Shown piece by piece: positions 632 through 56,620 of a DNA stretch of 64,000 bases (its first letter is position 1; each line of letters opens with the position of its first letter). This DNA is from Octopus vulgaris. Lineage: Eukaryota. The notes under the pieces were generated by a model. That model was not told the DNA's origin, did no database searches, and was given only the letters and a program-made list of their open reading frames with translations. The position numbers and the translations under genes are program-made. The stretch spans positions 22,320,001 through 22,384,000 of the forward strand of contig OX597828.1 of NCBI GenBank assembly GCA_951406725.2. The letters run 5' to 3'.

Positions 632-734
<103 letters not shown>

Positions 735-758
735 GTGTGTGTGATTGTGTATAGAAGA

Positions 759-1077
759 ATATATTAATAAAAGGAATTCCAATCTTGTCTGATTTTCACG
801 TTTTATTTACAATCTTATAATGATATATTATAAGATAATATATTATAATAGAATAAAATAAAATAAAATAGTAGAATGTTAAATGTTCATTCTGATTGAA
901 CTAGTACTTTCATGCATTCAATTCTGCAATCTTCGGGTTCATGTAGTAGTGGTGACAGTCATGCTTAAAATTGTTTTATTTTATTTTATTCTATTATAAT
1001 ATATTATCTTATAATATATCATTATAAGATTGTAAATAAAACGTGAAAATCAGACAAGGTTGGAATTCCTTTTATTA

Positions 1078-1083
<6 letters not shown>
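759..1083. mobile_element. Fold-back element: ~110-bp inverted arms (759-868 / 974-1083) around a ~105-bp spacer; probably Penelope-derived
   Basis: The arms are reverse complements with one mismatch seen (ccaatcttgtc vs gacaaggttgg). The right arm runs into (TA)n. Confidence 0.85.
897..941 (-). ncRNA. Type I hammerhead ribozyme motif (U4C variant)
   Basis: Minus strand reads ugaac-CCGAAGA-u-ugca(gaauugaa)ugca-u-GAAA-guac-UA-guuca: 5-bp stem I, 4-bp stem II, palindromic stem III (aguacu). Confidence 0.7.
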
Positions 1084-1112
<29 letters not shown>

Positions 1113-3786: not shown

Positions 3787-4200
3787 TTTCTTTACTACCC
3801 ACAAGGGGCCAAACACAGAGAGGACAAAGAAGGACAAACAAACGGATTAAGTCGATTATATCTACCCTAGTGTGTAACTGGCACTTATTTAATCGACCCC
3901 GAAAAGATGAAAGGGAAAGTCGACCTCTGCGGAATTTGAAGTCAGAACATAGCGGCAGACGAAATACCTATTTCTTTGCTATTCACAAGGGTTCAAATAC
4001 AGAGAGGACAAACACGGAAAGACAAACGGATTAAGTCGATTATATCGAAACCAGTGTGTAACTGGTACTTATTTAATCGACCCCGAAAGGATGAAAGGCA
4101 AAGTCGACCTCGGCGGAATTAGAATTCAGAACGTAGCGGCAAACGAAATACCGCTGAGCATTTCGCCCGACGTGCTAAACTTTCTGCCAGCTCGCCGCTT
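3787..4200 (-). mobile_element. SINE family A dimer
   Basis: Two head-to-tail units, joined at aaagaaata|ggtatttcgtc on the minus strand. Confidence 0.9.
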
Positions 4201-5740: not shown

Positions 5741-5849
5741 ATTTATTTTATAGAAGGAGCTTCTACAGGACTAGAACTGTTTCATTCAAAAGAAATCATC
5801 AGGAATGAAACAGTTCTAGTCCTGTAGAAGCTCCTTCTATAAAATAAAT
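5741..5849. repeat. Perfect 47-bp inverted repeat with a 15-nt loop
   Basis: 5741-5787 is the reverse complement of 5803-5849. Confidence 0.95.
5761..5805 (-). ncRNA. Type I hammerhead ribozyme motif
   Basis: Minus strand reads uuc-CUGAUGA-u-uuc(uuuu)gaa-u-GAAA-cag(uucuaguc)cug-UA-gaa: intact core and GUA triplet. Confidence 0.7.
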
Positions 5850-5914
5850 TAATTTACTCTGCTATGTATTGAGCACCTTATTTACTGTGGTTAACCCCGA
5901 CTCAACCCGGGACC

Positions 5915-5970
<56 letters not shown>

Positions 5971-25210: not shown

Positions 25211-25761
25211 TGTTATAACTATTGAAACAAATGTGAACAATGAAATAAAATGCCCAGTTAAACAATTAAATCCTAAATATCCTCTAGATATTGTAGAATT
25301 TTTTTACCTCGGATATATTCACAAGGTATTTAAATGCCATACTGAAAATACTAACTTGATTACTAACATTATGTCTTGCGTATAGATAGATAAAAATAAA
25401 AATGAAAAGATATGTTTAAATTCTCTTAATTTTTAAAAGTTGATATGTATATATGTATATATATATATATATATGTGTGTGTGTGCGTGTGTGTACTCAC
25501 AAACACACACACACACACTCGCGGACGCGTATGTATATGATGTATCGACACATTTTGTCATGCCTGGCAGCTATTTGATATTTCCTTATACGACAACTTC
25601 CCGTTGTTCGTCAGAGCGGACATCCATTTTTCAGGTACAAAGAATTTACAATATGTCGGCGATTTTTCTATGAAATAAATTTAATCCAGTATTCAGAGTG
25701 TTGCGTACCGTTCTTACTTCGTTCCAGTAAGCGTAATATAGAGAGCATTATCTATCTATCC

Positions 25762-35628: not shown

Positions 35629-35803
35629 AATCACAGTTGTCGCGCCGTCAGCGACTAAACCGGTAATGCCATTAAGCTCGCTGTGTGAGGAGGGTGTTTT
35701 TCATGCCATTTGTCACGCTACAGGATAGAACACAAGACTTGCCTGAGGGCGGTGGAACACTTGAATCAACGATCATCCAAGTAATACACAACAGTAACAA
35801 AAA
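35629..35803 (+). mobile_element. ~175-bp short element, copy 1
   Basis: Highly similar to the reverse complement of 36628-36807; A-rich 3' end. Confidence 0.8.
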
Positions 35804-36132
35804 TTGTTTTTCATTTTGGCACTGGGTTAGCAATTTCGAGGCAAGTATGCAACTCGATTACGTTCAGCCCAGTAGGTCAAATTTACTTTATTTTATGGGC
35901 ACGAAATTGTTGGAAGGCAAAGTTAAACCAGGGCGATGTTTAATGAGGAATCGTCGCTCACGCATTATGTTCCAGTTGCCCTAAGCAGAGAGAGAAACAA
36001 AAAGAAAAAAACAAAAAAGAAAAAAACAATGCGGCTGCTTTTACAATCACAATTTGCTCGGAATTTAGGAATTCAACGCTGAACAGTTGTAGCATCTTAT
36101 ATATGTATACATATAGATATACATATATATAG

Positions 36133-36360
36133 AGTCTGAGGAACTTGCACAAAGTAGATGTAGCGGTTTTTAAATCAGTTCTGGACATCTTCCTGTCAAG
36201 AGTCCCAGATGAACCTACCTCACGGCAAGAGGTGCAAATGAGAGTAGCTATATCAAACTCCATTCTTCACCAAGTGCCACATATTAGACGAGGTTCGTCG
36301 TAATAACAGTGTAGCACAAAACGGCGGTGCATGGCCGCAGCTCTGGGCTGAAACTAGAAA
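36133..36360 (+). mobile_element. LINE 3' end, same family as 19770-20230
   Basis: LDIFLSRVPDEPTSRQEVQMRVAISNSILHQ plus the gctgaaactag tail. Confidence 0.85.
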
Positions 36361-36471
36361 AATATATATATATATATCAAGAAGTATAAGATCGTTAATT
36401 TAAAAATATAATAACGATTTTATCAAGTGGTCAGCATGAAAAAAATAACATTCAAAGGTAATAATTAATAG

Positions 36472-36950
36472 AATTATAAATTACACCATGCTGAAAATAG
36501 CAGCCATGATCTGACTCTAAAACCACCGTAATTGTCCATATATCAACACGGAGAGAAAATAAACGAACAAGATGAAACTAGTAAAAAAATAATGGATAAT
36601 TCTTTTAGTAATTTTTACTGGATAATTCTTTTTTTTATTACTGTTGTGTATTACTTGGATGATCGTTGACTCTAGTGTTCCACCGCCCTCAGGCAGGTCT
36701 TGTATTCCATCGTGTAGCGTGACAAATAGCATGAAAAACACCCTCCTCACACAGTGAGCTTAATGGGATCACCGGTTTAGTCGCTGACGGCGCGACAACT
36801 GTGATAATTCTTTTAGTAATTTTTTACTAGTTTCATCTTGTCTCTTTGTTTTCTCTCCGTGTTGATATATGGACAATTAAGGTGGTTTTAGAGTCAGATC
36901 ATGGCTGCTATTTTCAACATGGTGGTATCTCGTAGATACCCTAATTTATA

Positions 36951-48112: not shown

Positions 48113-50845
48113 AGACGTTTTGTTTTGGCGGTGAGTTAAACGTTTTGTTGAACGTTGGATAATTTTTTTTTTCCGTGGGAATTATTTATTGTTGAACATT
48201 TTCGAACTCATGAACATTATTGAGCTGTCAAACTTTAGAATTTTTTGGTACTTTTTCTCGGTGACGGGAGAAAGTAATTGTTTGTGTAAAGCCATTTTTG
48301 CAGTTGTGAATTGTTGAAATATTGAACTTGTTAAAGCCGTTGTAAGCTTTATTGTCGCCCCCGCCCCAGTGGGGGTGGGATTGAACTGTTATCCTCATTA
48401 AGAGGAAAAATATATTATAGGTTTCCCGGTTTTTTGGGGTAATCAATTCATTGTCTGAAAAATTTAATTTTAGACATTGTAGGCTTTATTGTGGCACCCC
48501 GCCCCTAGCGCGTGTGAGATTTGAACTGTTATCCTCCTTGTGAGAACAAAAAAACAAAACATATTTCCCGTTTTTTTGGTATACCGTATTTTTATTATTG
48601 TATGAAAAATCTAATTTCGACCGTTGTATGCTTTGCTGTTACGTCTCGCCCCCAGCGGGGGTGGGATTTGAACTATTGTCCTCATTGAGAGGAAAAAAAA
48701 TAAAAAATTATAGGTTTCCCGTTTTCTGGGATTAAATTATGTATAAATTTATTTCCAACGAATATGTCGGTCGAAATAATTTCAGAGAAAAATTAACTGG
48801 AAGAGCCAATTAAGAAATTTTCAGCATTTATCGCGGTGGCTACTGAAAACGTCGAACTACCAAAGGAAAAGCTTTCCGAGCTTTTTGAAAAAATGAAAGA
48901 AGTCGGGGGTGATATAAAAATATCACAAGAAGTGAAAACGAAAAAGGAAGCACCACACCACAAAAAAAAATAAACGACCCCGCCCCATTGTCCCATAAGG
49001 AAAAACGAAAGATAACGAACAGAAAACCCTGGTAAAATATGACACCAGAGACAAATACATTGAGAACATTGTAAAAGATCACCACACCAGCACGCTGTTT
49101 GAACAGCACACGGACTTAAGAGAAAGATGTGCCTGGATAGGAGAAGGCCTTTACAGGCAACTGAAGGACAGGCATCCAAAGACCATCAGGAGTATCCCAG
49201 ACCTTCCAGGATATTTGAAGAAGGAGGAGGAAGAGAGGGCTGCCTAATGTGTTGCGAGGTCAGCCCCAACATCCCCAGTGAAGGGTAAGTTGAACCCTTG
49301 TAATTTTTTCCTTGTTTTGGCTGCACTTAATCTTGGATGTTTGAATATGCGTGGTCTGAGCAAGAAGTGAAAACAAGCTTGTTTCCTTGACGACCTCAGA
49401 TCACACGATAAGCATGTGATGTTAGTTTTAGCTGTCCACAGCTTGTCCAAGTAACTTACACTGACCATATAATGGTTAAGTGTAGACTGGACAAACATAG
49501 TACAGTTAAGAGTGGATCCGGCTACTGGAAGCTAAACGAGTCTATTTCGAATTGGGAGGCATACCGTAGCCGGGTAAAGGAATAACCGGTTAATAACCGA
49601 TGATGGTTCACCCACAAGAGAGCCATTCGTTTTGAGTCTGTTAGGTTTAGCCATCAGCTAAGACTAGATAAGGCCAGAATAGAAGAGCAGCTAGTTAAGG
49701 ACATAGAGGAGGCGTTGAGATTGGGTTGTGCATCTCATATTTTTGCAGCGAGAACGGCCTTGGGCTGTCACCTCAAAGCCAAACATGAGGGGTGCAGAAT
49801 TCGGGCTAAAGTACGCGCATTGGGCCGTGAGGGAATTAATGTTGCCGGATCGGCCCGTACGCTAGAAACCTAGCGTGGCAATAATTCAACAACTAGGTCT
49901 CTCGTTGATGACAATGGGTGTTCAGTCGATGGACAGGACGAGATATGTGAGGTGCTTCACAAGCATTTTGCCTAGTTGTTCGGGGGGGGGGGGGGCTGGG
50001 TGATGGTGTAGCCCTTAGGGACTTCCTCTCTGGTGGCCCGCGTCTCTCGGCACTAGAGGCGGAGTGCTATGAAGGGCCAATCAGAGCAGAGGATATGATC
50101 GAGGTACTGGGCGAATGCCCCGGGGAGAAGTCGTCGGGTCTCAATGGTCTGCCTTCTGAATTTTACAAAAGTATGCCAGACTTGTTCGAGCACCTGCTGT
50201 CCAGCGTCTACTCCAATTGGCAGTAGAATGGGAGATTTCCCAAGTCTGCGAGCCGTGGAGTGGTGACGGTGATCAAGAAGGACCCGAAAAAGTGGGATGG
50301 AATAGGGAGTTTCAGGCCCATAACTCTGCTGAACACAGAGTTAAAGACTTTGGCCGAGGTGCTAGTGAAAAGGTTGGCGCGGGTCGTAGACAGACTTGGA
50401 GGGGAAGCACAAACATTCGTTATCCCGGGCAGGGCGATCCACGACAATCTCCACCTTATACGATACTCCTTAGAGAGGCTGGGAAGCTTTCTGGTGCAGA
50501 GGAGGCACTGGTACATTTAGACCAGTCTAAGGCATTTAATAGGGTCGGCCATCGGTACTTGGCGGCAGTCCTCGAGAAGGTTGGCTTAGACCTGACCATC
50601 CGCGGTTGGATTGCTGCGTTGTACAGCGACAACGAGTCTATCATAAAAGTAAACGGTTTCCTTTCGAAGCCATTCAGTATCGAGCGCTCAGAGTGTCAAG
50701 GGTATACCGTATCTCCGCTTTTTTATGTGTTGGCTCTTGAACAATTTATGCGGAATTTAGAGGTACTAGGGGGCGCACCGCATGATCTATGGTGTGGAAG
50801 AGGAGCTACGGCATATGCGGATGACATCTCCATCATCGTGATAGA
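48113..50845 (+). mobile_element. Tx1/L1-like LINE, decayed and 3'-truncated
   Basis: APE remnants LGCLNMRGL and WKLNES; RT motifs SGLNGLPSEFY, FRPITLLNTELKTLA, GRAIHDN, LDQSKAFNRV, QGYTVSPLFYVLALE and AYADD. Confidence 0.92.
48338..48735 (+). repeat. Three diverged ~140-bp tandem monomers upstream of the LINE coding region
   Basis: The motif ttgta.gcttt..tgt...cgcccc.ag.g.g.gtg.gatt(t)gaact.tt.tcctc.tt..gag.a.aaaa...tttccc.ttttt occurs three times. Confidence 0.85.
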
Positions 50846-51789
50846 GAATGCTTCAGCATGGCAGCTGTCAAATAACAGAAACAAGTAAAAGAGTAAAAGA
50901 GTACATGTGTAGATGTAAAGGTAGCTGGAGATATAGATATAGATGAGAGTTGGTTACTTGAAAATGCACCTGAGTCTTGAAATGAATCTTAATATTTATT
51001 TTTCTTTTCAATTTCTAAAATTTAATAAAATTGAATAAGTTTCAATCAATTGTTCTGTTACAAAATGATAAATATAAAATGGAAACAATTCGAAAAAAGC
51101 AAAATAAAGATAATGCTCGGGAGTTAGTTTCATAATTATAAAGCATGCTGAAAAGTGAAAATCTGGAAGAGGTGCCGAAGCATATTTACTGGATGAATAT
51201 TCATGCGTTCATTAAAACACACTGCAATAAGAAATTATGAAAGTGCAAAGAACCGATAAATTCCATAGCAATAATACGCAATAGAATTTTGAAGGTTTAT
51301 TAAGATTAATAGCAATAATGTATATTTGCAATTATACGTGATGAAGATTTTAACATGCGACAAACAAAATTTTTACAACTTGCGGTGTTTCGTACGTTTA
51401 GATATTTAACTGTTTTGTCTTTAGCATCCTCATATTAATTTACGGCAGATATGCATATTCTCTATATATATATATATATATATGTATATATGTGTATGCA
51501 TATATATATATGTGTGTGTATGCGTGTATGAACTTTTATGTGATTATATATGCATATACACACTTGCATATATACACATACATGCTTATATACATGCATA
51601 TGTGTGTACACATGCACATTGACGCATAGACATACACACACATATATAGTACATATTCGAATCTGGCATTAATTATATATTATGTACATATATACATATA
51701 TGTTTGTATGTATGCATGCATGTGTGTGTATATAAGTATATATATATATATATATACATACACATATTTATATATATTTATATATATAC

Positions 51790-56270: not shown

Positions 56271-56334
56271 TGCAAACAAAGTAAGACATTTATTCAGTTA
56301 GCTTAAGCGTGTAGAAATGGGAAGTCGATCTTTT

Positions 56335-56620
56335 CTCAGGCGATACAATCTTCGGAAAGTGAATACGAATGAAGGAATTCGACAAGGAGACTCGTTATCC
56401 CCTTCAATATCTGTGTTATGCTTCATCCACCTCAGTTTAGAACTGAGAAAGGAAAAGGCAGGTTATCAGTTTACAGATATTAAAAATAATATTACCCATT
56501 TTCTCTACATAGATGATTTGAAGCTTTTAACTAAGGAAAACAGAGACAGCTTCTATAATACTGCCTGTGAAACTCTTCAGTAAAGACATAGGCATAGAAT
56601 TTGGCATAGATTTGTGCGAT
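56335..56620 (+). mobile_element. R4/Dong-like RT fragment
   Basis: GIRQGDSLSP, ITHFLYIDDLKL, FSKDIGIEFGID. Confidence 0.88.

Follow-up and report, generated by a model that had tools for sequence, protein, structure and literature searches.

A hammerhead-bearing fold-back in Octopus vulgaris, probably left by insertion of a Penelope-like element, and a U4C core variant amplified in its repeat family

Inverted pseudo-LTRs (pLTRs), in which copies of the 3' end of an element are joined head to head, have been described for EN+ Penelope-like elements (PLEs), for instance for Penelope-13_HM with its 5'-truncated inverted copy (PMC3846280; PMC8557442, Fig. 2). On one side, such a pLTR may have an optional tail of 31 bp (PMC3846280), an arrangement also described for EN+ PLEs in PMC8969392, and a tail of 30-40 bp as well as targeting of (TA)n have been reported for this group (PMC8557442). 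A PLE protein from an anole introduces nicks into both strands of AT-rich DNA and extends them, begins reverse transcription at two start sites that bound the tail, and does not depend on hammerhead cleavage in vitro (PMC11167929). The function of the PLE hammerhead is considered an open question (PMC8557442). Metazoan PLEs contain minimal type I hammerheads with a short stem I and a short palindromic helix III, which are predicted to pair as dimers without loop-loop contact, and a single minimal PLE hammerhead was reported not to cleave (Cervera & de la Pena 2014, PMC4209133). Outside PLEs, the core change U4C is a natural variant of a viroid hammerhead; it considerably reduces activity in vitro while infectivity is kept, and a U10.1-U11.1 mismatch is reported in the same source (cited in Perreault et al. 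2011, PMC3088659).

Here, we analysed a 64,000-nt stretch of Octopus vulgaris DNA, referred to as the window, whose features are collected in Table 1. A first-pass annotation of this DNA had pointed to nearly perfect inverted arms around a spacer of ~105 bp, and this description holds: 109 of 110 arm positions are paired (BLAST E 2e-52), with a single mismatch at 783/1059. What had been missed is an asymmetry: (TA)n follows immediately on the right arm, but on the left side a short extension lies between (TA)n and the arm. Within this extension, 738/742-758 match the tail of the repeat family and 733-737 have diverged. The long copy, read from 973 to 733 on the minus strand, thus contains a hammerhead and the optional tail, and the short copy, read from 974 to 1083 on the plus strand, contains neither. 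With a total of 351 bp, both copies are too short for any ORF, which distinguishes them from the inverted pLTRs of EN+ PLEs, with which they share the head-to-head copies of the 3' end, the one-sided optional tail, the hammerhead near the 3' end and the (TA)n target. The fold-back consists of two shortened copies of the same family end, joined head to head between (TA)n, and we propose that it is most likely the scar of a PLE insertion.

Table 1. Features of the two fold-backs, with positions in the window
Feature	Position	Strand	Basis
(TA)n microsatellite, left flank, likely target	635-732		sequence; loose ends with family ends next to (TA)n
One-sided 26-nt extension, matching the family's optional ~28-nt 3' tail	733-758	-	sequence and contig depth
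Left arm, 3' terminal part of the long copy	759-868	-	arm alignment; contig letters
Spacer (105 nt), further 5' part of the long copy, with hammerhead	869-973	-	alignment; contigs
Minimal type I hammerhead motif	897-941	-	descriptor search; features from PMC4209133
Stem I, UGAAC/GUUCA, 5 bp	941-937/901-897	-	
Core CCGAAGA, C4 at 935	936-930	-	
U·U pair, base of stem II	929/912	-	
Stem II, UGCA/UGCA, 4 bp	928-925/916-913	-	
Loop II, 8 nt	924-917	-	
GAAA box, then GUAC and UA	911-908; UA at 903-902	-	
Palindrome AGUACU, helix III; predicted cut after A902	908-903	-	
Junction letters, nearly private to the locus	967-973		contig depth
Right arm, short tail-less copy of the 3' end in inverted orientation	974-1083	+	arm alignment
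(TA)n microsatellite, right flank	1084-1104		sequence
Second fold-back, same build, unrelated sequence	5741-5917		BLAST, fold-back scan
Its arms, perfect, 47 bp	5741-5787/5803-5849		
Its one-sided extension, 68 nt	5850-5917		

A BLAST search of the 64-kb window found no second copy of arm or spacer, and the repeat family was followed in contigs of public sequencing runs. The queried stretch was found in part in 20 of the 24 listed runs, under 7 organism labels and with no RNA run listed. Contigs from four runs (X2, X3, X5 and X4) were aligned to 733-973 at 80% likeness, which gave 982, 722, 3439 and 8 aligned contigs; X2, X3 and X5 are DNA-sized runs of organisms A, B and C, X4 is RNA by guess only, and the best-matching DNA runs may include the window's own source. 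In this analysis, 820-879 was excluded as repeat. Filtering also removed 11 joints and 44 loose ends. Across arm and spacer, the depth of the three large runs sums to 2e5-7.5e5 per run, with listed single contigs at 18-132. Judged from these contigs, arm and spacer are one very abundant family, which may comprise roughly thousands of copies, summed contig depth being no copy number. Scans with family patterns gave 0 matches in metagenome contigs, viral contigs and prokaryote genomes.

The junction between the two copies is not shared by this family. Depth at 967-973 is 17.8, 15.5, 274 and 0 in the four runs, compared to 164k, 127k, 222k and 40 in the adjacent bin, and the other end of the stretch retains a depth of 48k-97k where 967-973 drops to 15-274. 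In all four runs, loose ends behind 963-966 have a similar, non-arm continuation (at least 26, 12, 176 and 3 contigs), which is visible for 30 letters. As one contig (X3 record 16) runs 320 nt upstream of 966, the unit from which the fold-back derives is longer than the copy in the window. A chance reading frame crosses the spacer, and the family departs from the window sequence at 967. At the opposite end, the family has two 3' ends ~28 nt apart, at 759 (at least 12, 15 and 38 contigs) and at 734-742 (at least 8-19 contigs per row); the loose ends before both positions mostly enter (TA)n, and the depth across 733-759 is 48k-420k. Variable inversion points had been suggested as a check, and one other opposite-strand joint is found among those listed, namely 809/970 (1 contig, organism C), with a different arm position from the 868/973 joint of this locus, which gives two cases. 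As a separate observation, X4 record 21 (depth 8.9) matches 781-966 with 2 differences and then continues with 71 other letters. It departs at 781 near a minus-strand AG|GT, which could reflect a splice out of the pLTR or a shortened copy.

These depths bear on two readings that do not involve a PLE. A MITE with 110-bp TIRs, the spacer of which had captured a hammerhead-like motif or contained one by chance, would match the near-perfect terminal arms and the TA-rich flanks, and MITEs are likewise short, AT-rich and have inverted ends. However, the family continues past 966 into non-arm sequence and the junction letters are near single-copy depth, and hence the fold-back is not a fixed MITE. 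In addition, neither the family ends nor the junction are fixed, the tail is optional and one-sided, the left arm is flanked by tail instead of TA, and the hammerhead motif appears in 0 of 100,000 shuffles. No TSD is readable at the locus, where the left arm borders on the tail and the right arm on (TA)n. The first-pass annotation had named many copies with fixed termini as the observation that would count against a PLE junction; instead, there are two family ends and a nearly private joint. Uniform copies with both TIRs and a fixed interior were not found, and we regard a MITE as very unlikely and largely refuted by contig depth. The second reading, an assembly or library fold-back artefact, is in line with the absence of a confirming contig for the 973/868 joint, for which repeat rows were filtered. 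Yet, the tail is one-sided and lies at the family's natural inner end, and the T at 783 in the left arm is private, the family having C there in 97-100% of the depth and the right arm agreeing with the family. Together with a second element of the same build nearby, this makes an artefact highly improbable.

The assignment to PLEs is suggested by four structural features, namely a 3' hammerhead, two termini, a head-to-head inverted 5'-truncated copy with variable breakpoints, and an AT-rich/(TA)n target. The tail of ~26-29 nt is slightly under the published 30-40 bp. The locus has no direct pLTRs in partial tandem, and none are visible in the contig tables. The first-pass annotation had suggested an inverted pseudo-LTR junction made during PLE reverse transcription. 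This proposal is supported by the continuation of the family past the fold-back point, the two ends at (TA)n, the occurrence of canonical copies and the second, different joint. As the inverted pseudo-LTR architecture is already published (PMC3846280, PMC8557442), it is not new. A Pfam match was obtained for three of the 16 ORFs of the window, all of them RVT_1 fragments 49-56 kb away from the fold-back, and there was no GIY-YIG match among these ORFs. Independently of the fold-back, to which they have no link, the broken, LINE-like RVT_1 reverse transcriptase fragments lie at 50160-50888 and 56302-56583.

We propose that a PLE protein would have nicked both strands of the (TA)n target, and that family RNA would have been reverse-transcribed with each nick as a primer, beginning in one case at the outer start, which includes the tail, and in the other at the inner start. 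Both cDNAs would have stopped early and their ends would have been joined, possibly through microhomology of A/T runs at 966-974. The hammerhead would then have come along with the pseudo-LTR as a passenger, and as a lone monomer within the hairpin it is predicted to be silent. The insertion itself is probably a dead by-product, from which dsRNA would arise only through read-through transcription. Alternatively, and still within the PLE reading, the nascent strand could have folded near 970 and copied itself, or antisense RNA could have primed itself; Arkhipova et al. (2013) argue for self-priming and proposed the route via antisense RNA (PMC3846280). At this locus, the long copy includes the whole of the short one, the arms are identical but for 1 of 110 positions, the T-run of the family just behind 966 could pair with the A-run at 865-868, and the second joint also breaks at 970. 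On the other hand, the bases inside the junction pair poorly (5 of 15 for 869-883 against 973-959). For this element alone, such a snap-back fits equally well.

The second fold-back of the window is less compatible with self-priming. Its arms lie within TA-rich/(TA)n flanks, and the first letter of its 15-nt loop is precisely C3 of a minus-strand CUGAUGA core; the inversion point on the other copy is the 3' strand of stem II. Its loop-less copy is 68 nt longer at the 3' end than its would-be template, so that a snap-back fails here unless the other end was trimmed later. We therefore place two-strand priming above snap-back within the PLE reading, and consider self-priming a possible but less favoured route. 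The first-pass annotation had noted the same U·U pair at 5761-5805 as in the first element. This pair is real (minus strand 5802-5780), but it belongs to a separate family, with no BLAST match between the two fold-backs, and to an incomplete motif: the 5' strand of stem I is replaced by the inverted arm, so that the site does not contain a whole hammerhead. Both of the two short-loop, non-simple fold-backs in the window thus share the same build, with a hammerhead core and a one-sided extension. Stem III of the second site resembles that of Hydra-1_aMil in the supplement of Craig et al. (2021), and a 10-mer of its extension has a single occurrence in this 584-kb supplement, at the 3' end of Hydra-2_Amil, which is a weak hint that the second site might belong to the Hydra clade. 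The site also matches mir-1781 (E 2.5e-13), purely as a hairpin. Further along the window, a decayed hammerhead-like core is present on the minus strand at 25581-25720 (CUGACGA, a stem-loop and an altered GAA box), and a plus-strand stretch beside it is weakly similar to the right part of 5741-5917 (local score 40, 59 columns); this is possibly an old relative of the second element, or chance.

Other inverted and repeated sequences were seen in the window. Two interleaved inverted-repeat pairs lie in 35630-36924 (35630-35803/36632-36805, 174 bp, 94%, and 36484-36591/36817-36924, 108 bp, 94%) and look like nested or overlapping TIR elements, and an imperfect 98-bp palindrome (86%) is located at 2167-2264. 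Copies of an abundant SINE-like repeat are found at 39-480 and 3787-4152, some as tandem 184-bp units; the repeat is presumably an octopus SINE. An Rfam scan of the whole window was dominated by microsatellite miRNA matches (150 of 360 shown).

The minus strand of the spacer had been read as a hammerhead with C at core position 4, and both statements were confirmed. Compared with the pattern CUGANGA...GAAA...UH, the core is not intact at position 4, and all remaining core positions match. A descriptor allowing any base at position 4, which was composed after the motif had been seen, has 1 match in the window, in the spacer, and it matched in none of the 100,000 dinucleotide shuffles of the spacer mentioned above, with or without the palindrome rule. 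The Rfam hammerhead gave no match on 865-975, even at E<=10. The motif lies ~140-165 nt from the two ends of the family. It shares a short stem I (here 5 bp), a short palindromic helix III (here AGUACU), the predicted dimer pairing and the lack of loop-loop contact with the metazoan PLE hammerheads, and differs from them by C4, by a U·U instead of the usual G10.1-C11.1 pair and by a stem II of only 4 bp (PMC4209133). The U·U pair, which the first-pass annotation had pointed out, is not special and turned out to be common: of the 26 Hydra-clade rows in File S2 of Craig et al. (2021), 14 have it at the base of stem II, and U10.1-U11.1 is likewise known from PMC3088659. Hydra-clade hammerheads also have CUGAAGA-U cores (e.g. 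Hydra-1_cRog) and (TA)n targeting (File S2), as observed here; in contrast, stem III of the first element is shorter than the Hydra-type 3-4 bp. None of the consensus sequences for octopus in the supplement of Craig et al. (2021) matched the family motifs; three of these motifs have 1-2 matches each in the supplement, in unrelated coding sequence.

The first-pass annotation had also expected a transcript of the locus to be a long dsRNA hairpin with a self-cleaving loop. The first part of this expectation is retained, as the transcript is predicted to form a 110-bp duplex (-153/-171 kcal/mol), and the second is not. The fold of the motif depends on its context: in the isolated 53 nt (893-945), stems I and II have predicted pair probabilities of 0.70-0.90, but these fall to 0.01-0.06 in the full fold-back (733-1083), and for the spacer or the whole element the stem probabilities are 0.01-0.10. 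Stem III is predicted only between two molecules, with cofolded copies pairing through AGUACU as in the published dimer model. As minimal monomers do not cleave (PMC4209133), U4C lowers activity (PMC3088659) and the hairpin is predicted to leave the stems unfolded, a self-cleaving loop is unlikely; the motif is real, yet little or no cutting is predicted for it at this locus. The same observations bear on the idea of a functional self-cleaving hairpin RNA gene, or of a self-propagating fold-back in which a loop ribozyme processes the dsRNA. The long duplex and the folding of the isolated motif would suit such a gene, but its junction is not amplified and the copy has private changes at 783 and 919, and we consider a gene of this kind extremely unlikely.

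Whether the family moves by its own enzyme is a different matter. One may tentatively suppose, within the PLE reading, that it is a non-autonomous, hammerhead-bearing short retroelement, PLE-derived and retrozyme- or SINE-like, which uses the enzyme of a PLE. PLE-derived retrozymes have been described (bioRxiv 10.64898/2026.07.22.740005), and the very high depth in several organisms without any ORF seen would be in line with this, as would internally deleted members: in four contigs from other copies, 103-120 nt are missing from the AT-rich middle (779-787 to 891-927). However, the 5'-truncated ends of autonomous PLEs would look identical, and the unit exceeds the window copy, as seen from the X3 contig. 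Non-LTR retrozymes consist of tandem monomers of 150-400 nt, each with a canonical type I hammerhead, whereas this locus has a single hammerhead and no tandem monomers, and tandem monomers are also absent among the listed joints. A non-autonomous family is therefore conceivable but, in our view, rather doubtful.

It had been suggested that other copies might have the canonical CUGAAGA core. They are indeed present and account for 38%, 72%, 19% and 73% of the depth in X2, X3, X5 and X4, respectively, and C4 accounts for ~62%, 28%, 81% and 27%, in three organisms and X4. Six sites in 877-966 are variable at a level of 3% or more. Loop II, with its 8 nt, holds five of them (p about 7e-6), and the remaining one is core position 4. 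C4 occurs in a run with a window-like loop II and in a run with a different loop II. Judged from the contigs, C4 is an amplified variant of the family and not private decay of this copy. CpG decay was considered as a source of the variation at 935 and rejected, as the partner change at 934 is absent, in any run, among the listed variants at 3% or more. In the literature searched, which lies outside the main survey of PLE hammerhead variants (reportedly Lunse et al. 2017), no report of C4 in PLE hammerheads was found. C4 is present in 0 of 34 rows of the PLE hammerhead table in Craig's File S2, and the accessible part of an octopus repeat annotation (PMC13282606) makes no mention of hammerheads. 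The viroid U4C hammerhead has the same core change (PMC3088659); here, by contrast, it is found in a retroelement family, with a high apparent copy share and no tertiary loop contacts.

As C4 is seen across subfamilies with different loop II and without the CpG partner change at 934, one might speculate that, in two of the three species examined (62% and 81%), a lineage whose catalysis is weakened by U4C has become more numerous than its canonical sister, and that PLE retrotransposition may select the fold of the hammerhead and not its cleavage. We consider this unlikely, if worth stating. The sequence beside the hammerhead (877-896 and 942-966) is as invariant as its stems, so that the conservation is not specific to the ribozyme, and a neutral change can be amplified by one master copy, which counts against a ribozyme-specific reading.

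Taken together, the fold-back alone matters little, as it is a described form of PLE insertion, one that may be taken for a MITE or for a miRNA hairpin. ORF-less, head-to-head stubs of this type record the start and the end of both primings, and a genome-wide tally of them could separate two-strand priming from self-priming. The amplified U4C core might be the sole point of specialist interest. A U4C subfamily amplified beside a U4 subfamily would be a natural experiment on the function of the PLE hammerhead and, if the reading of an expanding U4C lineage is true, the natural U4 and C4 sister subfamilies would provide an in vivo test of its role.
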